Shown here: piece by piece, positions 31,858-51,263 of the stretch
Layout of the letters: each line of letters opens with the position of its first letter
Numbering within the stretch: the first letter of the stretch is position 1
NCBI GenBank assembly: GCA_050949565.1
Contig: JBMNFY010000007.1
Coordinates: 190,973 to 254,972, forward strand
Direction: 5' to 3'
DNA: 64,000 nt
From: Kiritimatiellia bacterium
Lineage (GTDB): Bacteria; Verrucomicrobiota; Kiritimatiellia; RFP12; UBA1067
The notes under the pieces: generated by a model
The model's database searches: none
What the model saw: the letters and a program-made list of their open reading frames with translations, nothing else
Told to the model about the DNA's origin: nothing
Position numbers and translations under genes: made by a program

Positions 31858-33237
31858 TTAGGATTGCGGTTCAGGCTCGTGTGTGAACAGATCGAAGACC
31901 AGATCCTTCTGGCGCTGCCGTCGCCCCTGCTCGTAACCGCGCGTTCCGCCGTCGTCCGTGAAATCTTCGCCGACCGAATAGATGATACGCCGTTCGGTGG
32001 AGTAGCGAAAGGGCTGTCCGTCGAACGGATCGCGCGGCACGGCGGGCAGGTAGTCCGGCACCAGCGCCTGCAACGTCTCGGGCAGATGCCCGGTCGCTTC
32101 CTCATACGCCCGGCACGCCAACAGCAGCTGTGTAGCAGAAAGCTTGCACGCATCCCCACACGCCCGCCGTACCTTGTCAGCCAGCATTTTTCTTTGATAC
32201 CGCCAGATGCGCAGCCCCAAAACGTTGGCTGACGGCCATCGTAAGCGGTGCGTCTGACCGCGCTTGGCCGACGGGCCGTCGTTTTGGTTCGTATTGCCGG
32301 AAAGAACTCCGGTCGTATCGCTGCCTCCAAGAGGATGGTCAGCATAAGCCGTTCCTGCATGTGCCATCAACAATCGGTAGTCTCCGGCTATCAGATGCCG
32401 GGTGCGGTTGTACTGCATGAAATAGCTCGGTAAATAGACGAATTGAACCCTAAGTCTCACGACCGTGCGTTTAAATTTGCTTACGCCCAAACGGTCTGCG
32501 TAGATCTGATAGGCCCTGCCGCTCCGCGTTGGTTCCAGCAATTCCATTTGAACCGCATAATCACCCCGCGCTGATTTGGCCAGTTCTTGATTTGCGAAGC
32601 GCAGTTCTGCGAGTGCGGCGAGCAGGCGCGCTCTTTCCGTCAGGCCGCACCGCTTGTCGCGCGCCAGAGCCGTCGCTTGGGTCAACCCCATGTTGACGAC
32701 ACCATTGGCAAGCGGATAGTCGATCATGTTCTCCGAGGCCTGCTGAAGCCGACTCCCATACCGTATCAACAACAGTGTGGCGTCAGTCGCCTCGCTCATC
32801 CGCCCCTGTATTCGTTCGAAACGGGCCTGCGTCGCAAGCAGATGATACCCGATTTCAAAAAAACGACATGTCCACATCGGGTCAGGGTCACTTGCTATAT
32901 CCGGCTTCTGGCAGAAGGGACGCTCAACACCAAGCTTGACCCAAGCGATGGCGGCTTGGTTGGTCGCAATGAAGGCGGACACCAGAGCATCATCGTTCGT
33001 TTGTCCACGAAGATATTTGGACGGGACGAAGCCCTGAGGCTCGTACAGCATATTGGAGGCCGCATTCAGAAAGCAGATATAAGCATTTTCTTCTGGCGGC
33101 ACCTCGGTCCGAACGACGGCCAAATCGGAGACATCAGGCGGGGCGATGTCCCAGATCGGCACGTAAATCAACGCCGCTAAAAAAAGGATGACGATGAGGA
33201 ACGCCGCACCGATTTTCTTCACAAGTTGCCGCTTCAT
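31858..33237 (-). CDS. Membrane-anchored hypothetical protein with a pseudopilin-like C-terminal motif
   Basis: N-terminal TM; C-terminal LPETLQALVPDYL..VPRDPFDGQPFRY...YSVGEDFTDDGG. Confidence 0.7.
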   Translation of the reverse strand: MKRQLVKKIGAAFLIVILFLAALIYVPIWDIAPPDVSDLAVVRTEVPPEENAYICFLNAASNMLYEPQGFVPSKYLRGQTNDDALVSAFIATNQAAIAWVKLGVERPFCQKPDIASDPDPMWTCRFFEIGYHLLATQARFERIQGRMSEATDATLLLIRYGSRLQQASENMIDYPLANGVVNMGLTQATALARDKRCGLTERARLLAALAELRFANQELAKSARGDYAVQMELLEPTRSGRAYQIYADRLGVSKFKRTVVRLRVQFVYLPSYFMQYNRTRHLIAGDYRLLMAHAGTAYADHPLGGSDTTGVLSGNTNQNDGPSAKRGQTHRLRWPSANVLGLRIWRYQRKMLADKVRRACGDACKLSATQLLLACRAYEEATGHLPETLQALVPDYLPAVPRDPFDGQPFRYSTERRIIYSVGEDFTDDGGTRGYEQGRRQRQKDLVFDLFTHEPEPQS

Positions 33238-33292
33238 GGTTGGTCTCGAAGATAGCACTGACACGGCGTAAGGAGCAGGCGCTCTGCGTCAA

Positions 33293-34415: not shown

Positions 34416-36587
34416 TTATCTGACTAAAATCACACAACCGCGTGTGGCGTAGAACGTCAGAGACTTGCCGTCCGCCGACCGGACAAGGCGGCGGTGGTAA
34501 CGTGACGCAATGTCTTCGAGAACAGGCATCCCCTCGATGCCGCCTACGGCGGTGAGAAATGTCATGCCGCTACGGCCCTTTTCTCCCCAGAGAATGTCGT
34601 TGATTTTGAGCGTGGCACCGTTTGCGAAGATGAGCTTTCCTGAGGAGACCGACGTGCCGCCAGCAGCGAGTTCCGCTCCGTCTACGACCCAGTCCCCGGT
34701 CACAGTAAGATCGCCGTTGGAGATATCCGGGAGGCCTATGAGGTGTTCGAGCGTGTACGGCATGTCGTCAAAATCGACGCCCGTTCCTGGCGCGAACCTC
34801 ATCGTCGTGAACTTCGCGAGTTGGAGCGAGGTCGTAAAGAGTGTGCCGTCGCCCGGATCCTTCAACACCGCGTAATAGTCGGAATTGGTCACCATCCCCC
34901 GTGCCTGAATGTCCACCGCGAGGCCTTTTGTCGTGCAGCTCGTGCCGGCTGAATCCTTGAACTTGTGGTTCGCGTGTGACGCGCCGGACCCGCCTATCCC
35001 GTTGTAGGCGCGCACGGCGAACGCGTGCGGTCCGGGCGTGAGTGTGAGGTTCGTGGTGACGATGGTCGTCCATCCCGCCTGCGAGATCACTCGTTCGCCA
35101 TCGAGGAAAACGTCGCACGCATCGTCGATGCACACATGCCACGTCCACGTGACGTCCGTCGCGTTCGTGTTCCAAATGTAACCCGCGTACGTGACGAGTT
35201 CGTTTTGGTTCCAGTTGTTCCTCTCCATGCGCGGCATGTTTTTCGTCACCGCGTTCGTAAGCATCAGATAAGGCGTGTCGGTGTACGCCGCTTTCACGAG
35301 AGGCGTATTGGTTTCGCCATCGCCGTAAGACTTCGTACCCTCATTCAGGCCCGCGAGCGACGATCTGTTGAAACGCACCGTGCCACCTCTCACGTCGAGG
35401 AGCCCGGCCCCCATAAGGGAATCATAGACGAGCTCACCCGTTCCGGACTTGACCACTTCAGCCTTCCACGTGCCGGAACATTTCCCCACGTAACCCGTAC
35501 CGTTGAATTCGACCGACGGCAGGTTACAGGATGCGACGCCGTTGAAAATTACCGCAGAGTTGGTAAGAAAGAGCCGCCCGCCGTCCCACGGCACTGCGCC
35601 GTCGGCGTCGATGCGAAGACTGCCCGCGTTCATCGCGATGCCCCCTTTGAAGTCGTTGTCCGGACAGCCGAGGCGCAGCTCCTGATAGTTGCCCATCATG
35701 TTGAATCCGCCGTCGCCGGTCACTTTCTTGGGAAAACGGACAGTGGCGAACGTCGCCGCGTTGTTGCCGCCCTTGAAGTTCGTCATTTTCCGGAGGATCA
35801 CCGGGCCGTTCCACAGATTGTCCTGTTTGTCGACGGAAAGCTGGAAGTAGCCGTCCGCCACGTCCAACGTCCAGAACACCTTGGACAGGACCGACCAGCA
35901 GAACTGGAACTGGGCGTTGTTCGTCAACGTGAAGATGTTCGAGGCGTCGCCCGGGAAGCTGCACTGCGTGGGGAACGTCACACTGCCGCCGCTCGCGATC
36001 ACGTTACCGTTTGTGGTGACAGAATCTTCGAAGAAGAAACTGCCCCCTTTGAGCGTGAGCGTGTACCCGCCGAGATCGGTGGTGCCAAGCAGATCGTGGC
36101 GTACTGTGTCCGTGATGAGCGCATTCCCGGTCAACGTGAGCTTTTTACCGAGGGGGCTCACGATGGAGTTCTGTAACGCCGTCGACAGGCAACGAATCGC
36201 GCCGTTCCCGTCCGGCCCCGTACCCTCGATGATGAACTGCTCATTGCCGAAGCTGAGCGTTTGCGCCGCATTGGTATACGTCTGCAATTGTGCGCCATCG
36301 TAGACCTTTGTGTAGCCGGTCGCGAGGCCGAAGGCGTTTGTGGCCGATGCGTAAACGACACCCTCCCTGATGTGGATGTTGCCTTCGTATTCCGGAAGCT
36401 CACCGATATCCAGCTTGCCAGCGCCAAGCTTCACGAGATCGTCCGTGAGGCCGAGCGTCTTCGCTTCGTCGGCGAGCGCCTGTGCGAGCGTCTTCTCACC
36501 GCTCGCCACGGTGACTTCCACTTCACCCGCCTGCGCGACGAGCACCGCAGCAACAATCGATCCAACCGACAAAAGCAACTTGTTCAT
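34416..36587 (-). CDS. Exported protein with autotransporter-passenger-like beta-strand repeats and a PA14-like domain
   Basis: Signal peptide MNKLLLSVG; LVKLGAGKL, NDFKGGIAMNAGSL, VVKSGTGEL repeats; YAGYIWN..IDD..FLDG..LTPGPH; no C-terminal barrel. Confidence 0.75.
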   Translation of the reverse strand: MNKLLLSVGSIVAAVLVAQAGEVEVTVASGEKTLAQALADEAKTLGLTDDLVKLGAGKLDIGELPEYEGNIHIREGVVYASATNAFGLATGYTKVYDGAQLQTYTNAAQTLSFGNEQFIIEGTGPDGNGAIRCLSTALQNSIVSPLGKKLTLTGNALITDTVRHDLLGTTDLGGYTLTLKGGSFFFEDSVTTNGNVIASGGSVTFPTQCSFPGDASNIFTLTNNAQFQFCWSVLSKVFWTLDVADGYFQLSVDKQDNLWNGPVILRKMTNFKGGNNAATFATVRFPKKVTGDGGFNMMGNYQELRLGCPDNDFKGGIAMNAGSLRIDADGAVPWDGGRLFLTNSAVIFNGVASCNLPSVEFNGTGYVGKCSGTWKAEVVKSGTGELVYDSLMGAGLLDVRGGTVRFNRSSLAGLNEGTKSYGDGETNTPLVKAAYTDTPYLMLTNAVTKNMPRMERNNWNQNELVTYAGYIWNTNATDVTWTWHVCIDDACDVFLDGERVISQAGWTTIVTTNLTLTPGPHAFAVRAYNGIGGSGASHANHKFKDSAGTSCTTKGLAVDIQARGMVTNSDYYAVLKDPGDGTLFTTSLQLAKFTTMRFAPGTGVDFDDMPYTLEHLIGLPDISNGDLTVTGDWVVDGAELAAGGTSVSSGKLIFANGATLKINDILWGEKGRSGMTFLTAVGGIEGMPVLEDIASRYHRRLVRSADGKSLTFYATRGCVILVR

Positions 36588-36894
36588 ACGGTAGAGCCTC
36601 CAGCCTGTTCCACACCGTCTTCTGCACAGCACCATGCCGCACCCAAATGAATGGAATATTCGTGCAAATTCCGGAGCGTTTGTCACTACGCTAGACGAAT
36701 TTCGAATTTTCGATTTTCGTCCTCAAACTACCTATCACTTAGTCGTCCTAAGGCGCTGACCTGCGAATTACGGCTTTTTCTTGACGGGGATACGTAAACC
36801 TGCCATTTTATCAGCCCGACTGCATGCATAAGCATCATGAGCGGTTTGGCTCGTTTGGTGATGGCGTATGCTAAAGAAAGGCCAGGCTCCATTT

Positions 36895-41380: not shown

Positions 41381-43180
41381 ATGCAAAACAAACATGACCC
41401 CGATACTCCCGTTGTTTCAACGCCCGTAGCGAAGCGAACATTGATCAACACCATTTTACTCGCCAGCGCGGTTTTCCTGATCCCGGTGTTGATCGGCCTG
41501 CTTTTCGTCATGGTCTCGCACCGCCTCTCACCCCGTCCGGTTGCGCCGGACGCGGACTCCTGCGCTCAACTCACCAACCAACTCCATGACGGCAGTGTCA
41601 CCCAGGCAACGCAACTCGCCAGTTTGCGACGCGAATTCCGCGGGACTGGCTTGGCAACGGATGACGTGGACATCAAGCTCTGGGCGACGCGCGCGCAGGA
41701 ACCCGAAACGCTCTTCAGTGTGGCGCCCCCCACTCCAGAAAAACGGTGGAACTGGCACCTTTCACAAGACGGGCTTTTCGCTCTGGCGGTCTCAGTGCAA
41801 ATTGACCACCTTGACCAGCGTGATGTCGGCCTCTTTGACCTCATCCGTGAGGAGTGGGTGTGGACCAAGACATTGCCATGGCCCGAAACCCATGAGACCC
41901 CACACGTCTTCGGACGTAACCTCATTCTGCGCTATGTGAAAAACGCAGCCTTTTTCGCACTGGAAATCGATCCTAGCGGCACGATCGTGAGTATCGACAG
42001 ATTGCGCGCCAAGACCTTCGAGATTCCAGCACCCCCGCCAGCGTTCCCGAACATTGCGGGGCAACCCGTAGGTATCCGCCATGGCGTTTATTTCGCAGCC
42101 GACCCCCAAACCGGAAAGCTGAACGGTTATGCGCCAACGCTATTGCCCGGCTTACACGATGTCGGGCCGTATCATATCGGCACCGTTTTGTCAGGGAATG
42201 GACTGCTGCTGTTTCGTGCATTCAACGGCCGTGTGACCGTGTCGGACACGTTAACGGGCACGCTCCTGCAAACATTCGATGCTTGGCCGCACACGACCAA
42301 CACGGTGGTGACCGGCGCGCTGGCGACGGGGGACGGCTCCGGTCTCACGGTTTTTCTCCAGACCGAGTTCGACGGCACGCCGCCGGTCCGCCGCGAGTGG
42401 AGTGTCGCCATCGACGTCTATGCGGGGACCGTCAAGCGCAGCTTTAACGCCGACGCGCTTTTCGCCAAGCCCTCCACTGCCGAAACCCGCAGCGCCATGA
42501 CCCCGGACGGCCGCTGGGTGCTCGCCGTCGATACGGCCAACGCCCTGACGATCAGTCCGGCGGAAACCTCTGACCGCCCATCCGTCAGCATCCCGCTGGA
42601 CAAGGTCGGCATCAGCGACACCATTCGTCACATTGCTTTCTTGGAGCAGGGCCGCTACCTGCAGATGCGCAGCGACACCCACATGTGGTTACTCGATTTC
42701 AAACAGGCCCGCACCTATGGCGGTCTGACGGCCCGCATCGCCACAAGCAGCCGCACGATCCCCCCGGAAGCGTATCAGGTTCCCCCCGCACGTTCCGAGC
42801 CCGACGCCATGCTTGCTGTCTCGGAAAAAGGATACGGCGAACAAGCGCCCTTTGACCCGGATGATCTGGCACACAGTTTCGATGCTGATGCCACAGCCCC
42901 CTCCTACTTGGCTCTGCGCGCCGAGTTCTGTATCGCGAACCAAGCGTGGGGCTATGCCGCTGGCATGCTTGAAGAGATGGCTCGCCTGCAAGAATACGAC
43001 GTGCGTGCTCCGCGCATCAACCCGCTGCTGGCTTCACGCTGCCAGATCATGGCCGGACGGCCCAACCAAGCGCGCACAATCTGCAGCGAGGCACTACAGT
43101 CCTTGATCAGACGCCCTGACACCACCCCGCGCATGATCCTCTACCATCTGCAGGGGTTGCTCTTCGCACAGCCCGAATGA
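41381..43180 (+). CDS. Membrane-anchored hypothetical protein (possible beta-propeller)
   Basis: N-terminal TM helix; S/T-x-D-G turn motifs; tight spacing after the amidase. Confidence 0.65.
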   Translation: MQNKHDPDTPVVSTPVAKRTLINTILLASAVFLIPVLIGLLFVMVSHRLSPRPVAPDADSCAQLTNQLHDGSVTQATQLASLRREFRGTGLATDDVDIKLWATRAQEPETLFSVAPPTPEKRWNWHLSQDGLFALAVSVQIDHLDQRDVGLFDLIREEWVWTKTLPWPETHETPHVFGRNLILRYVKNAAFFALEIDPSGTIVSIDRLRAKTFEIPAPPPAFPNIAGQPVGIRHGVYFAADPQTGKLNGYAPTLLPGLHDVGPYHIGTVLSGNGLLLFRAFNGRVTVSDTLTGTLLQTFDAWPHTTNTVVTGALATGDGSGLTVFLQTEFDGTPPVRREWSVAIDVYAGTVKRSFNADALFAKPSTAETRSAMTPDGRWVLAVDTANALTISPAETSDRPSVSIPLDKVGISDTIRHIAFLEQGRYLQMRSDTHMWLLDFKQARTYGGLTARIATSSRTIPPEAYQVPPARSEPDAMLAVSEKGYGEQAPFDPDDLAHSFDADATAPSYLALRAEFCIANQAWGYAAGMLEEMARLQEYDVRAPRINPLLASRCQIMAGRPNQARTICSEALQSLIRRPDTTPRMILYHLQGLLFAQPE

Positions 43181-43282: not shown

Positions 43283-44089
43283 ATGAAAAAGTGGAATGCA
43301 GCCTCAATCAAGGCCGCGAAGGGCGTGCACAAGCTCGCCTGCCTGACGGCCTATGACACCGGCAGCGCACGGCTGGCCGATGCGGCGGGCATCGCGCTAT
43401 TGCTGGTCGGCGATTCGCTCGGCATGACGGTCTTGGGTTATGACTCGACGTTACCGGTCACCATGGCGGACATGCTCCACCACACTGCGGCGGTTACGCG
43501 CGGCGTGACCTCCGCGATGGTTGTCGCAGACATGCCTTTTCTCTCCTACCAGATCAACCTCGAAGAGGCGTTTCGTAACGCCGGCCGCTTCATCCAAGAG
43601 GCCGGCGCTGACGCCGTAAAAATCGAGGGCGGCGCGATCCGCGCCGAGTTGGTGCGGACGCTCACGGAAAACGGTATACCGGTTCTGGGCCACATCGGCC
43701 TTACACCTCAGTCCATCAATGTGCTGGGCGGTTACAAAGTTCAGGGCAAGACACACGAGGCGCGCGACCGCCTGATTGAAGACGCTCAGGCGTTAGCCGA
43801 AGCTGGCGCATTTGCCATCGTGCTGGAGTGCACACCGTCCGATATCGGTGCCGCTGTCACCGCAGCAGTTCCGGTGCCGGTCATCAGTGTAGGCGCGGGG
43901 CCGGAGTGCGACGGGCAGATGCTGGTGATGCACGACATGCTCGGCCTGACCGAACGTGCACCGAAATTTGTCAAACCATACGCCTCGCTTGCCACGACAA
44001 TGCGCGACGCCTTTGCCGCGTATGCTGCCGAGGTCGAGGCGGGTTCCTTCCCGGCACCGGAACACTGTTACGCCTCCGCCCCTTCCTGA
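43283..44089 (+). CDS. panB: 3-methyl-2-oxobutanoate hydroxymethyltransferase
   Basis: LTAYD, LVGDSLGM, VADMPF, VKIEGG, GHIGLTPQS, GAFAIVLE, DGQMLV..DMLG. Confidence 0.96.
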   Translation: MKKWNAASIKAAKGVHKLACLTAYDTGSARLADAAGIALLLVGDSLGMTVLGYDSTLPVTMADMLHHTAAVTRGVTSAMVVADMPFLSYQINLEEAFRNAGRFIQEAGADAVKIEGGAIRAELVRTLTENGIPVLGHIGLTPQSINVLGGYKVQGKTHEARDRLIEDAQALAEAGAFAIVLECTPSDIGAAVTAAVPVPVISVGAGPECDGQMLVMHDMLGLTERAPKFVKPYASLATTMRDAFAAYAAEVEAGSFPAPEHCYASAPS

Positions 44090-44099
44090 AGAGTACCCC

Positions 44100-45494
44100 A
44101 TGCGTTCACCTCGTGAAGACATCGTGATCACCGGCCTGTCATGCCGCTTCGCTGAAACGCCGAATCTGGCCGCTTTCTGGCGGAACGTCATGCAGCGGCG
44201 TGCGTTGTTCACGCCTCTGGACGAGCCCCCTGCCGGGGACCCGACGCTCTTCGACCGCCCCTACCCTGCGGCCGCCGCACAGCTCGGCGACCTTTATGCC
44301 TGTACACCGGCCGACCAGTACTTTCCGCGCACGATCAACGCTGGTGAGAATCAAGATGTCTTCTTCACAGTCCAACTTGCAATCGATGCGTTACGCGACA
44401 GCGGCAGCACCATCAGTAGCCTGCCCACAGACCGTATCTCCTTCCGTCTAGGGTATGCGCCGCCCTTCAATACCGCTTCGGTCAACTGGTTGCAGCACAC
44501 CTTCTTCCTCGATCAGACGCTGGACATCCTAGCGAAATTTTTCCCGGTCGCCGGACCTGAGCAACTCGGAGAAATCCGCCGTCAGCTTGCTGCTGCCCTG
44601 CCGACCCCCAATCCGTACGCGTTCCTGTCGGCGCTGGGCAGTGTCATCGCATCCTGGACCGCGCACCTGCTGGGTCTCGCCGGGCCGGCCTTCGTGGTGG
44701 ACGCCGGCACCGTCTCCGGCCATCAAGCCCTGCAAGGCGCGATGGACGACTTGCTCACGCGTCGCGCTGACATCGCCCTAGCCGGTGCCGTGCAGCCGCC
44801 GCTCAACCGGCCGGTACTGCTGGGTCTCTCCGGCACCCTGCCCTTCTCGCGCAAAAAAAACCTTCAGGCCTTTAGCCGCGAGACGGATGGCACGCTACCC
44901 GGCGAGGGGGGCGCCGTGTTTGTGCTTAAACGTCTCAAGGATGCCTTGCGTACCGGCGACCGCATCTACGCCATCATCCGCAGTACCGGCATCGCCGCAG
45001 CCTCGATCGACCAGCACCAACGTGTGCCGACGCCGGAACGCCTGACCCGCGCCATCAGCCGCGCCATGCACACCGCCGATGTCACCCCCGACACCGTTCA
45101 GTTGCTTGAGGCGCACGGCTCCGGTATCCCGCATTCTGATCAGACTGAAGTCCAAGTGATGCAGGAGATTTTCGGTGAACGTCGTGCGGGACAGCCGTTG
45201 GTCGGCGTCGGATCGGTCAAAGGAAACATCGGGCATACACTTTGGGCGGCCGGTGCCGCCGGCATCCTGAAAGCCGCGCTCGCGCTTTCACATCGCGTAC
45301 TGCCGCCGCACGTCTCCGTCGACAAACCGAACCCCCGCATCCTCTCGGCCAAATCGCCGATCTACCTGCTTTCCGACGCGCGTCCGTGGCTACGAGGCAA
45401 CAAAAAGAATCCGTGTCGTGCCTGCGTCGCTGCAATTGATTTTTCCGGCACCTGCGCTGCCGCCATTCTCGAAGAGTACCCGGAGGAGACATGA
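44100..45494 (+). CDS. Stand-alone type I PKS-like ketosynthase lacking the catalytic Cys
   Basis: IVITGLSCRF, FWRN, VVDAGTVSG (cf. DxAC), DGTLPGEGG, LKRL.DA...GDRIYA, EAHGSG, GSVKGNIGH. Confidence 0.85.
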   Translation: MRSPREDIVITGLSCRFAETPNLAAFWRNVMQRRALFTPLDEPPAGDPTLFDRPYPAAAAQLGDLYACTPADQYFPRTINAGENQDVFFTVQLAIDALRDSGSTISSLPTDRISFRLGYAPPFNTASVNWLQHTFFLDQTLDILAKFFPVAGPEQLGEIRRQLAAALPTPNPYAFLSALGSVIASWTAHLLGLAGPAFVVDAGTVSGHQALQGAMDDLLTRRADIALAGAVQPPLNRPVLLGLSGTLPFSRKKNLQAFSRETDGTLPGEGGAVFVLKRLKDALRTGDRIYAIIRSTGIAAASIDQHQRVPTPERLTRAISRAMHTADVTPDTVQLLEAHGSGIPHSDQTEVQVMQEIFGERRAGQPLVGVGSVKGNIGHTLWAAGAAGILKAALALSHRVLPPHVSVDKPNPRILSAKSPIYLLSDARPWLRGNKKNPCRACVAAIDFSGTCAAAILEEYPEET

Positions 45495-48400
45495 CCGGCC
45501 GCATCCACCTCTATGATCCATTCGATTGCGAGCTGTGCCTCATCGGTGCGCCTGACGACACCCGGCTGACCGAGGAGGTCAAACGAATCATTCACTTCCT
45601 TGAACATGCGCCGGAGGTCTCGCTACAGGACGTCGCCTACACCTGCGCCTGTTCCGCGCGCCGCATGCCTGCCGTGCTGGCGGTCGTCGCTGCCTCGGTC
45701 ACTGATCTTCGTGACCGCTTGGTGCTGGCTCACAAGAAGCTGTCCGAAAATGCCGGACGAATCCGCGACAGAAGCGGCACCTACTTCTTCCGTGACCACC
45801 TCTGTCCGCGCGGGCGCGTCGCTTTCCTGTTTCCCGGTGCCGTCTCGTTTTATCCCGATATGCTGCGCGATCTCTGCCTGGCTTTCGAGGACTGCCGAAG
45901 CGCCTTTGATGAGTTGGAGGAGGCGCTTCAGACGGATGACAATCGAACCTTCTCTCCGCCTGATTACATCTTCCCTCCCGCCGCCTGTTATCGCAACAAC
46001 ATCGACACCTTCTCGGCACAGGCCTTCTCCGAATCATTCATCGCCGTCCACGCCGCCAACACTGCGCTCTTCCGCCTGTTCGACCGCATGGGCGTGATTC
46101 CTGACGGCCTAGCCGGATTTAGCGGCGGCGACTTCGCCGCGCTCGAAGTCGCCGGCGTCTACGGCGAACTCTCACGCAACAAACGCATCATGTTCATGCG
46201 CGAGGGCTATCAAATGCTGAGTCGTCTGGTAGAGCGCGAAGACTTGCCGGCCTGCGTCATGCTTTCGTTGATCGACGCGCCGCGCGAGACGCTCGACGCG
46301 TTAATGAAGGCCCATCCCGGCCGGATCGCGCTGTTCTGTTTTCACAGTCCGCGCCAGCAGACCATCGCGATCTCGCCCCAGATCCAGAAAGAGGTCACCG
46401 CCACACTTCAAAAGGTCGGCGTGCGGACCGTGACCGTGCCCATCGACCGGCCTTTCAATACGCCTTGGTGCAGCAAGGTGCTGCCACCCATCAAGCAGTT
46501 CCTTGCGCATTGGGTACGCCATGCACCCAACATCCCGGTCTACTCCTGCGCAACCGCCGAGCGTCTGCCGGCGAAGCCACGCACTATCCAAAATCTCACC
46601 GTCGACCAATGGACCGCGCCAATTCTCTTTGAGGATACAATCCGCCAGATGTATGCCGATGGCTTCCGTGTCTTCATCGAACTTGGTGCACGTGGCAACA
46701 TGACCACCGCCATTGATGAAACCCTCAAGGGACAACCGCATCAAGCTGTGGCCGTCGACCGCATTCACCGCTCGGGGCTGACCCAGCTCCACCATGCCCT
46801 CGGTCTGCTGGCCGCGCAGGGCGTGCCGATCGACCTCTCAATGCTCCACCGCCATCGCCGCAGCCGCATGCTCGACTTCAACCGTCCGCTCTCGGTCGTC
46901 ACGCGCACGGAAAATGAATTGCGCCTCTCCGCCCGGCTGCCAACACTCACCCCCTTCGCCCCGCCAGGTGAATTCCTGATCTCTTCGCGTACCACCCCCG
47001 AACAGGCGCGCAAGGTCGCGCCAGCGATCACCGAAAGACGTGGTTTTGATTTCGGAGCCGACTTCCCCATGCTGACTAACGCTTCGATCCTCGAAGAGCA
47101 GGCCGGCGTCACAATGACAATCGCCAAAACACTGACCCTGGAGGACTATCCCTTCCTGCGTGACTATGCGCTCGGTACCTCGCAACTCTCCTACGCCAAT
47201 CCCGGTCTCAAGGGGCTGACCCTACTCTCCTTAATCTCCAGCCTTGAAATGATGTGCGAGGCCGCTCGCAAACTGGTGCCGCGTCGCCGTGTCGCGCAAG
47301 TCCACAACCTGCGCGCGCAGCGTTGGGTCGGTTTTGAACGCGGTTCGTTGCATGTCATCCTGCGTGCCGAACGCATCTCTTGGCCCGACTCAAGCTACAC
47401 GGCCGTACGCGTTCAACTCCGTGATGACACGCCCAACAGCGCCTTCACCTGGCCGATTGTCGAGGCAATCATCCTGCTGACCGCCACCAGTCCCGCCCCC
47501 CCCTCGATCCAACCGCCACCACTCTCGCACCCGCGCTCGGTCAACTGGTCCGGCCACGACATCTATCCCGATCGCCTCTTCCATGGTGAAAGTCTGCGCA
47601 TTGTGCGCCATGTGGATATCTGGAGCGAAGAAGGCATCGACTTTGAAGTTGAAGTGCCTGGTCGCTCCAATGCCGTCAGACACACCAAGATTCCGCTCTT
47701 CTCCATCTGGCCCATGCTACTGGATGGTATCGTCTCGACCTTCTCGCTGTGGCGAGCACACGAGAAATTTGCCGGTGCCATTTCCATACCCTTCCGTGCG
47801 CGCCGTATCATTTTCCACGCCAACACCTTCGCTGAGGGTGCTCGCTTGCGCGGCTACCTCCGTTTGATCTCGGTCACGCCGCGTTCGCATGTGGCCGACA
47901 TCCAAATCTCCGACGGCAACGGCAACTTGCTTATCCACTTCCGCGGCTGGGAGGAACTGTGCGAACGTGTCCCTCCGGAGTACCACCAGTTCATCCTGCG
48001 CCCCTCAGAGCAATACCTGACCCGTGAACTACCTGTGGAACTGCTGGGTAACCCCACCACGCCCGTCGCCGCCTCAGTCGCCACCGACGTACCGTTCAAT
48101 ATCTTCGAGCACAATCAGGAACTCTGGCTCAAGACACTCGCCCATGTGGTGCTCTCGCCGGTCGAACGCGAAGAGTGGCTCGAAATGCAAGGCGCCACCA
48201 ATCGGCGTGTCGAGTGGCTCTTCGGACGCGCCGCCGCCAAAGAAGCCACGCGACGTTTCCTGATCAAACACCATCAAGCACGCTGGACCAACGCCGACAT
48301 CCCAATCTGGCCCGACGACTCGGGCAAGCCCCACCCGCTGGGGCCTTGGAGCGAACACACCTCTACCAAGATCGACCTCTCGATCACCCACACCTCAAAG

Positions 48401-48802
48401 CTGATCATTGCCGCAGTCGCCGCCAATGCCCGCATCGGTATCGACATCGAAATCCTCGGCCGTGTCCTCAGCGAAGATTTTACCCGCGGCGTCTTCACGC
48501 ACGAGGAATTGGAACTGGCCGCCCACACGGGTGAAGCCCCGGTCACAATCCTGCGCTTCTGGTGTGCCAAGGAGGCCATCTCCAAAGCGCTGGGCACCGG
48601 CATCCGTTACAGTCCGCAAGACCTGCGTATCACGGCCATCGACGCGGTGACCGGCTGGCTTCAGATCGAACTGCTTGGTCAGTGGCTGGAGCCCTTCAAA
48701 CAATTGAAGGGACGCAAAAACCCCATTTACACCACACTCTATGAAGGGCACGCAGTCGCCACCTGTCTGTTGCCGGCCTCCCTTTTTGAAAAACCGGAAT
48801 AG
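45491..48802 (+). CDS. PKS-like linker-AT-DH(double hot-dog)-phosphopantetheinyl transferase fusion
   Basis: VAFLFPG, GFSGG, GFRVFIELG (AT); PFLRDY, LFHG, PMLLD (DH-like); GKP, SITH, GIDIE, FWCAKEAISKALGTG (PPTase); ATGA overlap with the KS gene. Confidence 0.82.
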   Translation: MTGRIHLYDPFDCELCLIGAPDDTRLTEEVKRIIHFLEHAPEVSLQDVAYTCACSARRMPAVLAVVAASVTDLRDRLVLAHKKLSENAGRIRDRSGTYFFRDHLCPRGRVAFLFPGAVSFYPDMLRDLCLAFEDCRSAFDELEEALQTDDNRTFSPPDYIFPPAACYRNNIDTFSAQAFSESFIAVHAANTALFRLFDRMGVIPDGLAGFSGGDFAALEVAGVYGELSRNKRIMFMREGYQMLSRLVEREDLPACVMLSLIDAPRETLDALMKAHPGRIALFCFHSPRQQTIAISPQIQKEVTATLQKVGVRTVTVPIDRPFNTPWCSKVLPPIKQFLAHWVRHAPNIPVYSCATAERLPAKPRTIQNLTVDQWTAPILFEDTIRQMYADGFRVFIELGARGNMTTAIDETLKGQPHQAVAVDRIHRSGLTQLHHALGLLAAQGVPIDLSMLHRHRRSRMLDFNRPLSVVTRTENELRLSARLPTLTPFAPPGEFLISSRTTPEQARKVAPAITERRGFDFGADFPMLTNASILEEQAGVTMTIAKTLTLEDYPFLRDYALGTSQLSYANPGLKGLTLLSLISSLEMMCEAARKLVPRRRVAQVHNLRAQRWVGFERGSLHVILRAERISWPDSSYTAVRVQLRDDTPNSAFTWPIVEAIILLTATSPAPPSIQPPPLSHPRSVNWSGHDIYPDRLFHGESLRIVRHVDIWSEEGIDFEVEVPGRSNAVRHTKIPLFSIWPMLLDGIVSTFSLWRAHEKFAGAISIPFRARRIIFHANTFAEGARLRGYLRLISVTPRSHVADIQISDGNGNLLIHFRGWEELCERVPPEYHQFILRPSEQYLTRELPVELLGNPTTPVAASVATDVPFNIFEHNQELWLKTLAHVVLSPVEREEWLEMQGATNRRVEWLFGRAAAKEATRRFLIKHHQARWTNADIPIWPDDSGKPHPLGPWSEHTSTKIDLSITHTSKLIIAAVAANARIGIDIEILGRVLSEDFTRGVFTHEELELAAHTGEAPVTILRFWCAKEAISKALGTGIRYSPQDLRITAIDAVTGWLQIELLGQWLEPFKQLKGRKNPIYTTLYEGHAVATCLLPASLFEKPE

Positions 48803-48808
48803 GACGAC

Positions 48809-49567
48809 ATGCGTCTGTTGCTTCACAACATTCAATACGGAACCGGACGGCTGCGCCGCTTCGCTTGGCTGGAAACCCTCACGCGCAGCACGCGGCACTT
48901 CCCCAACATCACGCGCTTCCTGCGCCACATGGATCCTGACATCATCGGGCTTGTGGAAGTAGACGCCGGTTCATTCCGTACAGAGCACAAAAACCAAGCC
49001 GAAGAACTGGCCAACGATCTCGATTACTACCATTGCCACCGCGTGAAATATCCGGACAACGGCCTCGGTCGCCGTGTACCGGTTCTTAACAAACAAGCCA
49101 ATGCCGTCCTCTCACGCGAACCGATCTTGCGTTCTGCCTTCCACGACTTCGACACCGGCTTTAAGAGTCTGGCGATTGAGGTGGAGTTAGAGCAAGTCAC
49201 ATTTTTCCTCGTGCACCTCGCCCTCGGAACGCGTGCCCGGCAACGCCAACTCGGCGACCTCTACGACCTGGTCCAAGGTTGCGACAAGCCGCGTCTGGTG
49301 GCGGGCGACTTCAATACCCTCACCGGCGTTTGGGAGATGCGCATGTTCCTACGCGCAACCGGTCTCAAGAGCGCCAACACGCGCCACGCCCCCACCTTCC
49401 CGAGTTGGGCGCCGTGTCGCGAGTTGGATTTTATCTGCCACGACCCCTCCATCACCCCGATCCGCTTCAAAATCCCCCGCGTGCGGCTCTCCGACCACCT
49501 GCCGCTGATGTTCGATTTCGAACCACCCGACACACCCCGGCAGCCGCCGCAAGATGGCACCCACTGA
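48809..49567 (+). CDS. Endonuclease/exonuclease/phosphatase (EEP) family protein
   Basis: HNI, DPDIIGLVEVD, NAVLS, VHL, VAGDFN, TFPS, LDFI, SDHLP. Confidence 0.88.
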   Translation: MRLLLHNIQYGTGRLRRFAWLETLTRSTRHFPNITRFLRHMDPDIIGLVEVDAGSFRTEHKNQAEELANDLDYYHCHRVKYPDNGLGRRVPVLNKQANAVLSREPILRSAFHDFDTGFKSLAIEVELEQVTFFLVHLALGTRARQRQLGDLYDLVQGCDKPRLVAGDFNTLTGVWEMRMFLRATGLKSANTRHAPTFPSWAPCRELDFICHDPSITPIRFKIPRVRLSDHLPLMFDFEPPDTPRQPPQDGTH

Positions 49568-49597: not shown

Positions 49598-49758
49598 ATT
49601 TAGGATTTAGGGGGTAGGAGTTAGGATTTTTACTTGAGCGTTGAAAGTTGAGAGTTGAATGTTGAATGTTTTTTGGCGAGAGTCCCCACGAGCCGCTGGG
49701 GCGCGGCAATGGAGGGCGAGTGTCCCCACGAGCCGCCACCCGCTGTGTGGAAGGATAG
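49598..49758. repeat. Repeat mosaic: two heptamer arrays and two RAYT-family REPs
   Basis: (atttagg)n, (ttgaRNg)n 49634-49670, REP 49675-49695 and 49710-49735 with tail ccgctgtgtggaaggatag. Confidence 0.78.
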
Positions 49759-49784
49759 CTTGTGGATGTATTCGGACTTTTACA

Positions 49785-51263
49785 ATGCTCCTTCTACTCT
49801 TCCACGGGGCGGGGTGTTGTGGCTGGCACGCGATAAAGCCGCTGCCCGACGGCGTGAGCTATCAGGGCGCGCAACTGCCTTGTACCGATGCGCGTTTCCT
49901 CTGTGACGTGACTGGACTCGACGAAAACGGCGCACGAAAAAGCGAACAAGAGATCTTTGACGAAGTGTTTGCAATGATCAACCGCGCTGAACGGATTGTG
50001 GTGATCGACATGTTCCTGTTCAACGCCTTTCTGTGCATGGAACCCAACCCGTATCGTCCGCTGAGCGACGAGCTGACCCAAACACTGATCGCCCGCAAGC
50101 GCGCGGTGCCCGAGTTGCGCGCCGTGCTCATCACTGATCCAGTAAACACGGTCTACGGCGGCATGAAGGCCGCGCACCTGGAGAGCCTCAAGGCGGCCGG
50201 CGTTGAGGTTGTTATGACGCGTCTTTCGCGGCTACGTGACAGCAACACCGCTTGGTCCGTCTTTTGGCGCCTGCTGTTCCATCCCTGGGGCAACAGCCCT
50301 CGTGGGGGATGGACCCCCAACCCGTTCGGTTGTGAACCTGTTACCGTCCGGAGTTGGCTTGCGATTTTGAACCTGAAAGCCAACCACCGTAAAGTGGCCA
50401 TCGCCGATGACGGCACCGAGTTACGCGCACTGATCACCTCTGCCAACCCGCATGACGGCAGCAGCGCGCACACGAATGTCGCGCTCGCCTTCAGCGGCCC
50501 GGCCGCGTACGATCTGCTACGGACCGAGGACGCCGTGCTGGCTTTCACTGACCGCACGCTGCAACCGCTATCGTCCACCGTCAGCAGCAGTAACAACGAC
50601 CAACAGGAGCCCCCGGCCGACATATTCCGTACACGTATCCAAATCCTGACGGAAGAAAAAATCGCCGATGCGGCCGTAGCCATGATCGACGCCGCACAGC
50701 CCGGCGACACTTTGGACCTTGTGATGTTTTATCTGGCTGACCGGCCGGTTGTCCGTGCCCTAAAACGCGCGGCACGGCGTGGAGTTTCGCTGCGCGTCCT
50801 GCTTGATCCAAACAAAGATGCCTTTGGGCGCACCAAGAACGGCATGCCGAACCGCCAGGTAGCACGCGAACTGGTCGCTGTCGGCGTTCCCGTGCGCTGG
50901 GCAGCCACGCACGGTGAACAGATGCATGCCAAACTTTTGCTGGCACGTTACGCCACGGGCATGGGAGACGTGCTACTCGGCTCCGCAAACTTCACACGGC
51001 GCAACTTGCGCGACTTTAACCTCGAGACCAACGCACGACTCACAGGCACCCTCGACACACCTGCCATCAAAGATACCGCCGACTTCGCGGACCGCCTCTG
51101 GACCAACGCCGACAACCGTGTGTTCTCGCTCGATTACGACGCTTTCCGCGACAACACCCACTACCGGACCTGGCTCTACCGCCTGCAGGAAGCCACCGGT
51201 TTTTCCGGTTGGCAACTCCTTATGAACCGGGGTGTACAAACGGTTCGTTGCGCGCGCACATAG
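49785..51263 (+). CDS. Phospholipase D family protein (start uncertain)
   Basis: NHRKVAIAD (HKD), SANPHDGS, HAKLLL, GSANFTRRN..NLE. Confidence 0.85.
   Translation: MLLLLFHGAGCCGWHAIKPLPDGVSYQGAQLPCTDARFLCDVTGLDENGARKSEQEIFDEVFAMINRAERIVVIDMFLFNAFLCMEPNPYRPLSDELTQTLIARKRAVPELRAVLITDPVNTVYGGMKAAHLESLKAAGVEVVMTRLSRLRDSNTAWSVFWRLLFHPWGNSPRGGWTPNPFGCEPVTVRSWLAILNLKANHRKVAIADDGTELRALITSANPHDGSSAHTNVALAFSGPAAYDLLRTEDAVLAFTDRTLQPLSSTVSSSNNDQQEPPADIFRTRIQILTEEKIADAAVAMIDAAQPGDTLDLVMFYLADRPVVRALKRAARRGVSLRVLLDPNKDAFGRTKNGMPNRQVARELVAVGVPVRWAATHGEQMHAKLLLARYATGMGDVLLGSANFTRRNLRDFNLETNARLTGTLDTPAIKDTADFADRLWTNADNRVFSLDYDAFRDNTHYRTWLYRLQEATGFSGWQLLMNRGVQTVRCART

Follow-up and report, generated by a model that had tools for sequence, protein, structure and literature searches.

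Among bacterial polyketide synthases (PKSs), integrated 4'-phosphopantetheinyl transferase (PPTase) domains are few (SACE_2343, SAV_7361); the products of these systems are unknown, and their PPTases group with the Sfp-type enzymes, according to the portion of the source that is available (PMC6042109). Type M-T PPTases carry two characteristic motifs, P1a, of the form x(G/D)xP, and P1b', of the form hShxH, and Renibacterium salmoninarum is listed under Type M, as far as the accessible text goes (PMC3098273). A fused pfaDA gene lying beside a pfaBC-PPTase gene has also been described and likened to an uncharacterised secondary-lipid synthase of R. salmoninarum, in the excerpt at hand (PMC13291983). 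The subject of this report is a pair of overlapping genes, ORF A (44100..45494, forward strand, 464 amino acids (aa)) and ORF B (45491..48802, forward strand, 1103 aa), within a 64,000-nucleotide (nt) stretch of a Kiritimatiellia genome (assembly GCA_050949565.1, contig JBMNFY010000007.1, positions 190,973 to 254,972), hereafter called the window. ORF A has a stand-alone PKS-type ketosynthase (KS) fold, and ORF B consists of a linker of the type that joins a KS to an acyltransferase (AT), an AT-like domain, a dehydratase (DH)-like domain and an Sfp-type PPTase, as assigned through Pfam, AlphaFold2 (AF2) and Foldseek; the resulting order, KS-AT-DH-PPTase, is common to the pair and to the PfaBC-like, integrated-PPTase subunit of Type M-like synthases. 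The pair is probably an orphaned and catalytically dead PfaBC-PPTase-type subunit pair, whose PPTase would have turned into a housekeeping synthase of the holo form of acyl carrier proteins (ACPs).

ORF A matches both halves of the KS fold in Pfam (PF00109, E 1.8e-28; PF02801, E 1.5e-28), and the PfaA model TIGR02813 ranks first among its NCBIfam matches. Alignment to solved KS domains places Thr204 of 'DAGTVSG' on the Cys of 'DTACSAS', and the motifs EAHGSG and KGNIGH correspond to the two KS His motifs, both His being kept in the window copy; the Cys-His-His triad of active PKS and polyunsaturated fatty acid (PUFA) synthase KSs is thus broken at its Cys. Conservation was followed by mapping 120 ORF A-family and 121 ORF B-family proteins onto the window residues. 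Position 204 is Cys in only two of the 120 KS homologs, the most frequent residues being Ala (50), Gly (22), Thr (18) and Ser (11), with Phe, Met, Ile, Val and Leu among the others. Gln, expected there in KSQ domains and chain-length factors (CLFs), occurs in none of them. His339 is His in 97 homologs and replaced in 22, His379 is His in 110, and Lys374 is Lys in 116.

The N-terminal portion of ORF B holds the KS-AT linker subdomain (aa 18-78, 45542..45724, forward strand; PF22621, 2.1e-08; PF22336, 5.8e-06), which aligns with residues 496-560 of the CurL KS-AT didomain; in fused synthases this linker packs between KS and AT. The AT-like domain that follows (aa 106-465, 45806..46885, forward strand) gives a weak match to PF00698 (aa 180-435, 51 bits), and the generic type I PKS model NF045894 comes first for ORF B in NCBIfam, with TIGR02813 second. 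In the phmmer alignment to CurL (4mz0), GAVSF falls on GQGSQ, GFSGG on GHSVG and PFNT on AFHS, so that the nucleophile (Ser211, nt 46121) and the AT arginine (R237) are kept and the catalytic His is replaced by Asn323 (nt 46457); despite Ser211, the residue set of an active malonyl/acyl transferase is therefore incomplete. Among the 121 homologs, Ser211 is Ser in 82 and lost in 38, Arg237 is Arg in 113, and position 323 is Asn in 111, His in seven and Ser in three. A predicted disordered linker (aa 473-521, 46907..47053, forward strand; predicted local distance difference test score (pLDDT) below 50) leads to the DH-like double-hotdog domain (aa 531-865, 47081..48085, forward strand), recognised through PF14765, the PKS dehydratase (PS-DH) family (aa 696-819), and through profile mapping. 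In the profile alignment to canonical relatives, 'FLRDYALG' lies on 'FLRDHTLG', which puts Tyr559 (nt 47165) in the place of the DH His; Asp745 of 'LLD' is kept, and of the His and Asp of an active PS-DH only the latter is therefore present. Position 559 is never His in the family (Tyr 83, Phe 35, Asn two, Ser one), and Asp745 is Asp in 82 homologs and lost in 36. The AF2 model of ORF B, made from a 50-sequence alignment, has a mean pLDDT of 88.7 and is confident except in the linker 473-521; its top Foldseek matches are KS-AT-DH-ketoreductase (KR) PKS structures (8i4y_A, E 2.4e-34), and it also matches isolated AT structures at template-modelling (TM) scores of about 0.8, such as the salinomycin AT 7vt1_B at 0.82. 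A phmmer search of the PDB with ORF B matched, at E <= 0.001, the AT region only; the DH and PPTase are therefore assigned from profiles and fold comparisons.

The C-terminus of ORF B (aa 866-1103, 48086..48802, forward strand) reads as an Sfp-type (group II, W/KEA) PPTase with all of its catalytic motifs. PF01648 (ACPS) matches aa 981-1061 with 52.6 bits against a cut-off of 25, and TIGR00556 reaches 52.4 against 45.35; PF17837 (4PPT_N, aa 902-943) stays under its cut-off of 27, with 20.8 bits. The domain is not of the AcpS type: the model TIGR00516, whose cut-off is 59.8, gives it 31.1 bits when the protein is scanned and 24.6 when the genome is. Sfp-type PPTases measure about 230 aa in two pseudo-symmetric subdomains, and AcpS about 120 aa. 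The span of the ORF B domain is Sfp-like in size, and AF2 folds it into two ordered alpha/beta halves with block-mean pLDDT values of 86-97. When modelled on its own the domain has a mean pLDDT of 64.9 and a poor N-terminal half, and its Foldseek matches consequently speak for the PPTase fold only: the top ones are all PPTases (AASDHPPT, PcpS (7bcz), PptAb, Sfp, fungal fatty acid synthase (FAS) PPT and AcpS), PptAb and Sfp aligning over about 230 columns. The motifs are SGKP (944-947), H967, GIDIE (983-987) and FWCAKEAISKA (1023-1033), and G945, K946, P947, H967, D985, E987, W1024, K1027, E1028 and K1032 are present in 118 of the 121 homologs, the remaining three having no aligned residue at the catalytic positions. 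The classical KS, AT and DH catalytic residues vary freely, in contrast to those of the PPTase.

A first-pass annotation, made from the letters of the DNA, had already seen two long, coupled and frameshift-free ORFs, a KS without its Cys, the AT readings GAVSF, GFSGG (Ser at 46121) and PFNT (46457), a replaced DH His (47165) beside a retained LLD Asp, and a PPTase keeping GIDIE and FWxxKEAxxKA. Each of these readings is borne out, by the stop-free frames and the ATGA overlap, by the alignments to solved KS domains, to CurL and to canonical relatives, and by the presence of the PPTase motifs.

The overlap between the two genes is ATGA, with GGAGGAG just 5' of it, and ORF B (45491..48802) has zero internal stops; by this overlap ORF B is translationally coupled to ORF A. 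The open frame of ORF A extends over 43956..45494 with GTG, and the plausible ATG at 44100 lies 10 nt past the stop codon of panB, the ketopantoate hydroxymethyltransferase gene (43283..44089, forward strand; PF02548, E 2.8e-109). The latter is the first gene of a tight block formed with A, B and, in the window, a fourth gene described below, and belongs to the pantothenate/coenzyme A (CoA) branch, the source of the PPTase donor substrate. In a survey of 80 related loci, for which denominators count the loci with enough flanking DNA, a KS-like gene lies directly 5' of ORF B in 62 of 73, and 30 of 59 preserve the order panB-KS-B. Other genes are found 5' of ORF B in the 11 loci that have no adjoining KS; five of the genomes in question were checked, and four hold a full-length KS ortholog elsewhere (43-67% identity), no KS ortholog being found in the fifth, G155. 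Open frames that reach about 1,400-1,590 aa in some related genomes were considered as KS fusions, an idea that was rejected on two examined cases of about a dozen long frames, the KS being a separate, overlapping ORF in another frame.

The family is maintained over a wide range of divergence. Of the candidates scored against ORF B, 574 are related to it at E <= 0.001; the top 120 share 45-94% identity and are mostly about 1,090-1,140 aa long, a few being shortened, and those that carry names come from metagenome-assembled genomes (MAGs) of Kiritimatiellia or Kiritimatiellae, a pattern that is the same for ORF A. Within the order, the listed frames are free of stops over the full length of ORF B down to 31-36% identity. 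Ratios of nonsynonymous to synonymous substitution rates (dN/dS) were estimated by the Nei-Gojobori method against seven orthologs, the closest of the 80 loci, at dS values of 0.34-1.38 across genes and domains. They amount to 0.06-0.13 for the KS of ORF A, 0.09-0.15 for the AT-like domain, 0.04-0.12 for the DH-like domain (the lowest within ORF B) and 0.06-0.17 for the PPTase, with panB, taken as a yardstick, at 0.05-0.16; the linker of aa 466-530 is the least constrained stretch of ORF B, at 0.16-0.23. The DH-like value lies below that of the PPTase in six of the seven comparisons. All domains of the pair are thus under strong purifying selection, and the pair is conserved across Kiritimatiellia. 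Contigs from metatranscriptomes (four runs from four biogas or digester studies) span the genes at >=99% identity, some of them bridging panB to A and A to B, which suggests that the panB-A-B genes are expressed, DNA carry-over being possible in such libraries.

In the window genome (4.66 Mb, 92% complete), searches with PF01648 and TIGR00516 detect no PPTase other than ORF B. The genome has an ordinary type II FAS, composed of a FabD-FabG-AcpP cluster, in which AcpP (contig C17, L168:8313-8561) carries DSLD, and a FabF-like gene. Its five KS matches are accounted for by ORF A, the FabF-like gene and a lone 594-aa KS locus, and a search for a PfaA/PfaDA partner or any large synthase yields none in the genome, where only two small ACPs are found. 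There is no ACP in the window itself, the two PP-binding matches of the genome being on contigs C17 and C1 and the window on C7; no KR or enoylreductase (ER) was found among the 20 ORFs Pfam-scanned at 28.6-62.3 kb, a scan that left out the ORFs of 1-28 kb. The second carrier is an 87-aa protein with a GVDS motif (contig C1, L167:6842-7105; PF00550, E 1.8e-08); after its gene come a 136-aa ORF that no Pfam family matches and a 499-aa gene of the phospholipase D (PLD)/cardiolipin-synthase-like kind (C1, L167:6842-9158). Another PLD-type gene lies at 49659-51263 of the window, two genes 3' of ORF B, and the two settings may hint at a carrier-dependent lipid-head-group pathway. As for the lone KS (C17, L166:7384-9168), it matches PF00109 and PF02801, has a weak second KS-like stretch after these, and neighbours unrelated genes, for an FGGY kinase, an rRNA dimethylase and a beta-galactosidase.

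The distribution of PPTases over related genomes points in the same direction. The PF01648 search was positive in all 10 bacterial control genomes and in 151 of 151 genomes of a phylum sample, where matches outside the class Kiritimatiellia are mostly in AcpS-sized frames; in the window's order, 15 of the 16 genomes of that sample have a single match, located in a frame of 1,092-1,568 aa. A denser sample of the order gave matches in 117 of 121 genomes. When one family, f5, is set aside, PF01648 matches in 96 of the remaining 98 genomes, and 91 of the 98 contain exactly one such match. The matching frames mostly measure 1,030-1,593 aa; those that are shorter, approximately ten, run into a contig end or belong to a gene divided between two contigs. 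As for the portion of ORF B that precedes the PPTase (aa 101-865), 95 of the 121 genomes have it, but it was detected neither in any of the 23 genomes of f5 nor in the single f42 genome of that sample. A stand-alone PPTase was seen instead in 21 of the 23 f5 genomes; its frames range from 275 to 787 aa, most of them being about 280-390. The fused gene and the stand-alone PPTase are thus distributed in a complementary fashion, as would be expected if ORF B were the housekeeping PPTase, and ORF B is apparently the sole ACP-activating enzyme of the window genome and of almost every sampled relative in which the gene is present. The stand-alone PPTase of one f5 genome (G134, L171:2457-3281) has 274 aa, is Sfp-type and is 29% identical to the ORF B PPTase; its neighbours are genes for homoserine dehydrogenase, Asd and a PBP, an unrelated setting.

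With these data at hand, several proposals of the first-pass annotation can be assessed. It had viewed the KS, AT and DH domains as possible pseudoenzymes, which agrees with substitutions that are conserved as a class under strong purifying selection; neutral decay in one strain, the outcome it had named as refuting, is ruled out by dN/dS values of 0.04-0.17 in every domain. Its suggestion that the PPTase might replace AcpS fits the phyletic pattern, in which ORF B accounts for the single PPTase match of the genome and of almost every sampled carrier. The statement that the window lacks ACP, KR and ER holds in its ACP part, and for KR and ER over the scanned ORFs.

Evidence on the origin of the pair comes from its intact relatives. 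A search of 1.84 billion cluster representatives returned 14,925 relatives at E <= 0.001, of which 1,255 reach E <= 1e-30. Among the best 150 of the 14,925, those beyond the Kiritimatiellia clade have the composition KS-AT-[ACP]-DH-PPTase, either fused (about 1,550-1,990 aa) or with the KS split off (about 1,100-1,390 aa), and carry canonical motifs: DAACASS, EAHGTG and SMIGH in the KS, GEGSQ, GHSxG and xYHT in the AT, and FLxDHTLG in the DH. The PUFA-type ACP motif LGIDSIKRVEILG occurs in 50 of 151 relatives, and the KS-AT portion of canonical relatives scores highest with the PfaA model TIGR02813. In a FastTree phylogeny of 134 representatives with >80% coverage, rooted at the midpoint, the degenerate proteins form a single clade inside the ACP-less split proteins with canonical residues. 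Fused KS-AT-DH-PPTase forms occur outside the clade. The DH His is lost in all 13 degenerate members of the tree; the six deepest-branching ones keep the AT His, and two of these six also keep the Ser. A PfaA/PfaDA partner is present in the relatives G098, G261, L089 and L105. A Brocadia MAG and Rubrivivax gelatinosus have an ER-KS-AT-ACP-KR-DH gene of 2,760 aa with a fused KS-AT-DH-PPTase gene after it. In a Verrucomicrobiota MAG (G261, L195), a PfaA-like KS-AT-ACP-KR gene precedes a 467-aa KS and a 1,104-aa AT-DH-PPTase, and a genome of the same class and another order (G098, L250) has the same layout, its PfaA-like frame not being scored for KR; neither departs from the canonical residues, and each genome encodes a second PPTase at another site.

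The history that best accommodates these observations would start from a 'KS + AT-DH-PPTase' pair, PfaBC-like and with an integrated PPTase, belonging to a PUFA-type secondary-lipid synthase. The ancestor of the order would have lost the PfaA-like partner, with its ACPs and KR, as well as its separate PPTase; the active sites of KS, AT and DH would have decayed, and the C-terminal Sfp-type PPTase would have stayed intact, made essential by the loss of that partner and of the separate enzyme. Both the orphaned-subunit origin and a PPTase made essential by loss are well supported by the comparative data, which show the identity of the domains, the missing catalytic residues, the purifying selection, the intact relatives and the lack of a further detectable PPTase. 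In present-day cells, the ORF B PPTase is predicted to transfer 4'-phosphopantetheine from CoA to the AcpP of the type II FAS, on which it would thus be active, and to the second small carrier. A and B probably still pair in the manner of a KS-AT didomain, given the ATGA overlap, the KS 5' of ORF B in most loci, the retention of unlinked KS genes in four of five genomes and the fused forms outside the clade. We infer that the KS, AT and DH no longer perform their classical reactions, and that a non-catalytic job which the PPTase came to need, such as scaffolding, dimerisation or carrier docking, is the likeliest reason for their retention.

Several observations weigh against this history. The DH- and KS-like domains are constrained as tightly as the PPTase or more tightly, beyond what a passive scaffold would need, which leaves room for a new activity. 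Ser211, Arg237 and the two KS His are kept above the expectation for chance decay (82 and 113 of 121; 97 and 110 of 120), and this partial retention, together with the constraint, may reflect a ligand- or carrier-binding role or even a new activity. Family f5 and genome G158 manage with no fused gene, and the dead domains are therefore not indispensable to the lineage; an extra PF01648 match occurs in five of the 98 non-f5 genomes. The window genome is 92% complete, PF01648 is blind to a very divergent PPTase of another fold, and the RNA-library contigs over the genes are compatible with DNA carry-over.

The same features feed the suggestion, unlikely on the whole, that the pair is an enzyme of acyl metabolism with rewired chemistry, for example a malonyl-CoA/ACP-binding decarboxylase or priming factor of the KSQ/CLF kind or an acyl-binding AT built on Ser211 and Arg237, the PPTase being one of several activities. 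The window copy does keep both KS His motifs, the AT Ser211 and Arg237, and the DH Asp745; Arg237, His379 and Lys374 are kept in most of the family; and the constraint on the KS- and DH-like domains matches that on the PPTase. No classical catalytic residue is invariant, however: the KS Cys position is non-Cys in 118 of 120 homologs and never Gln, His339 is replaced in 22 of 120, the AT Ser is lost in 38, the AT His in 114, the DH His in 121 and the DH Asp in 36 of 121, and the genome offers no PKS partner, KR or integrated ACP. Less probable still is a division of labour in which the ORF B PPTase would serve a special carrier, for example the 87-aa ACP by the cardiolipin-synthase-like gene, and an undetected PPTase would activate AcpP. 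Both the proximity of PLD-type genes to that carrier and to ORF B, and the incompleteness of the genome, speak for such a scheme; an AcpS missed by chance is nevertheless at odds with the single PF01648 match in 91 of 98 non-f5 relatives, does not account for the complementary pattern in f5, and sits poorly with a search that succeeded in every genome of the phylum sample and in every bacterial control. That KS, AT and DH are functionless relics heading for deletion, with selection on the PPTase alone, would explain the lost catalytic residues, and one family of the order does cope with a 274-aa stand-alone PPTase; this notion is largely refuted by the selection data and scarcely credible, as dN/dS in the three domains (0.04-0.15, at dS of 0.4-1.3) equals that of panB, the full length is free of stops in distant frames, unlinked KS genes are kept in four of five genomes, and the AF2 model is confident save for one linker.

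Within the orphaned-subunit history, a more specific role for the dead portions can be proposed, tentatively and as rather an outside chance, namely that the approximately 1,330 residues of dead KS, AT and DH form a pseudoenzyme module that controls or targets the essential PPTase. The KS, AT and DH may capture apo-AcpP with the faces on which carriers formerly docked; in another version, the AT pocket, with Ser211 and Arg237, may read malonyl-, acyl- or free CoA and tie holo-ACP formation to the supply of pantothenate and CoA, with which the conserved panB-A-B block fits. If either docking or sensing were true, this would be the first essential holo-ACP synthase governed by a fossil megasynthase.

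The remaining features of the locus can be described briefly. A gene of the exonuclease/endonuclease/phosphatase (EEP) family (48809..49567, forward strand; PF03372, E 1.5e-16) starts 6 nt past ORF B; it adjoins the 3' side of ORF B in 10 of 74 loci, is linked only among the closest relatives, and probably lies outside the conserved core. In the intact relative L195, the position 3' of the AT-DH-PPTase gene is occupied by a type I phosphodiesterase/nucleotide pyrophosphatase gene (L195:13586-15211); the presence of a phosphoesterase in both settings may be a coincidence or a link to 3',5'-ADP/CoA by-products. Further upstream, ORFs of 599, 756 and 468 aa (41381-43180, 34416-36686 and 31858-33264 of the window) have no Pfam match at E <= 0.001; the first of these is flanked by an amidase_3 gene and panB, and has a counterpart in L051 that is 43% identical. 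Several MAGs of the order, G182, G213 and G241 among them, which represent one or two genera, share an interruption of ORF B: the gene passes from one contig to another at approximately aa 391-404, and the PPTase motif lies about 1,460 nt from a contig start. This suggests a recurrent assembly break within the AT-like domain, caused by a repeat or by variation between strains.

The locus would document, in living genomes, how a working PUFA-type synthase of three genes, accompanied by a separate PPTase, turned into an orphaned pair with a single surviving chemistry, phosphopantetheinyl transfer, that is now indispensable; this would explain a bacterial order devoid of AcpS. It also constitutes an annotation trap: the names of homologs include 'polyketide synthase' and 'acyltransferase domain-containing protein', and a miner of biosynthetic clusters might count the pair as natural-product potential. 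Three large dead domains that evolve as slowly as the live one provide a test case for pseudoenzyme function and structural entrenchment. Kiritimatiellia are common in digesters and animal guts, and if the PPTase is essential and dependent on the dead domains, it would represent a lineage-specific weak point of these bacteria.

In comparison with known systems, a search of the literature, supplements excepted, found no published account of the Kiritimatiellia pair, of its PPTases or of a catalytically dead version. The 'undescribed system' of the first-pass annotation is better regarded as the decayed, orphaned descendant of a described, uncharacterised PfaBC-like/PPTase architecture; its ideas of a pseudoenzyme and of AcpS replacement stand, and the label of novelty falls, along with the analogies to enediyne PKSs (PKSEs) and fungal FAS. 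Fungal PPT domains group with AcpS-type PPTases, in the available part of the source (PMC6042109), whereas the window PPTase is Sfp-type. The window pair nests in the family tree of Type M-like synthases and shares their architecture, split after the KS, and its PPTase reads SGKP at P1a and LSITH at P1b'. It differs from them in being divided into KS and AT-DH-PPTase genes, in that no PfaA/PfaDA partner was found in the window genome, in the loss of the KS Cys, AT His and DH His, and in a PPTase that is the only one of its genome. In the arrangement described earlier, canonical relatives adjoin an ER-KS-AT-ACP-KR-DH gene, the fused pfaDA (PMC13291983, in the excerpt at hand). The link to SAV_7361 of Streptomyces avermitilis, to Renibacterium and to Frankia is one by description, drawn from architecture, from the papers and from Streptomyces and Frankia matches.

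The PKSEs have the domain order KS-AT-ACP-KR-DH-PPTase. They resemble the window pair, by this order, as iterative type I synthases with a C-terminal Sfp-type PPTase after the DH, but neither ORF B nor its nearest canonical relatives have an ACP and a KR between AT and DH, and the KS-AT is PfaA-like; in ORF B, which lacks PP-binding and KR matches, a disordered linker of 49 residues connects the AT to the DH. A KS fold without Cys, with the His pair in most copies, recalls KS0, KSQ and CLF proteins and inactive DHs; the Cys position of the ORF A family is nonetheless variable and never Gln, and there is no assembly line to serve. The closest functional parallels may be free-standing enzymes. 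PcpS is reportedly the only PPTase of Pseudomonas aeruginosa. It acts on AcpPs, as the accessible text states (PMC5686131), and Synechocystis has one Sfp-type PPTase, SPPT, that serves the ACP of FAS, according to the part of the source available (PMC5605751). The ORF B PPTase is, like these, an Sfp-type W/KEA enzyme in a genome without AcpS and is expected to activate the FAS ACP; SPPT and PcpS are free-standing proteins of approximately 230-250 aa, whereas the ORF B PPTase is preceded in the same polypeptide by about 865 residues of dead AT and DH and is accompanied by a dead KS partner of 464 aa.

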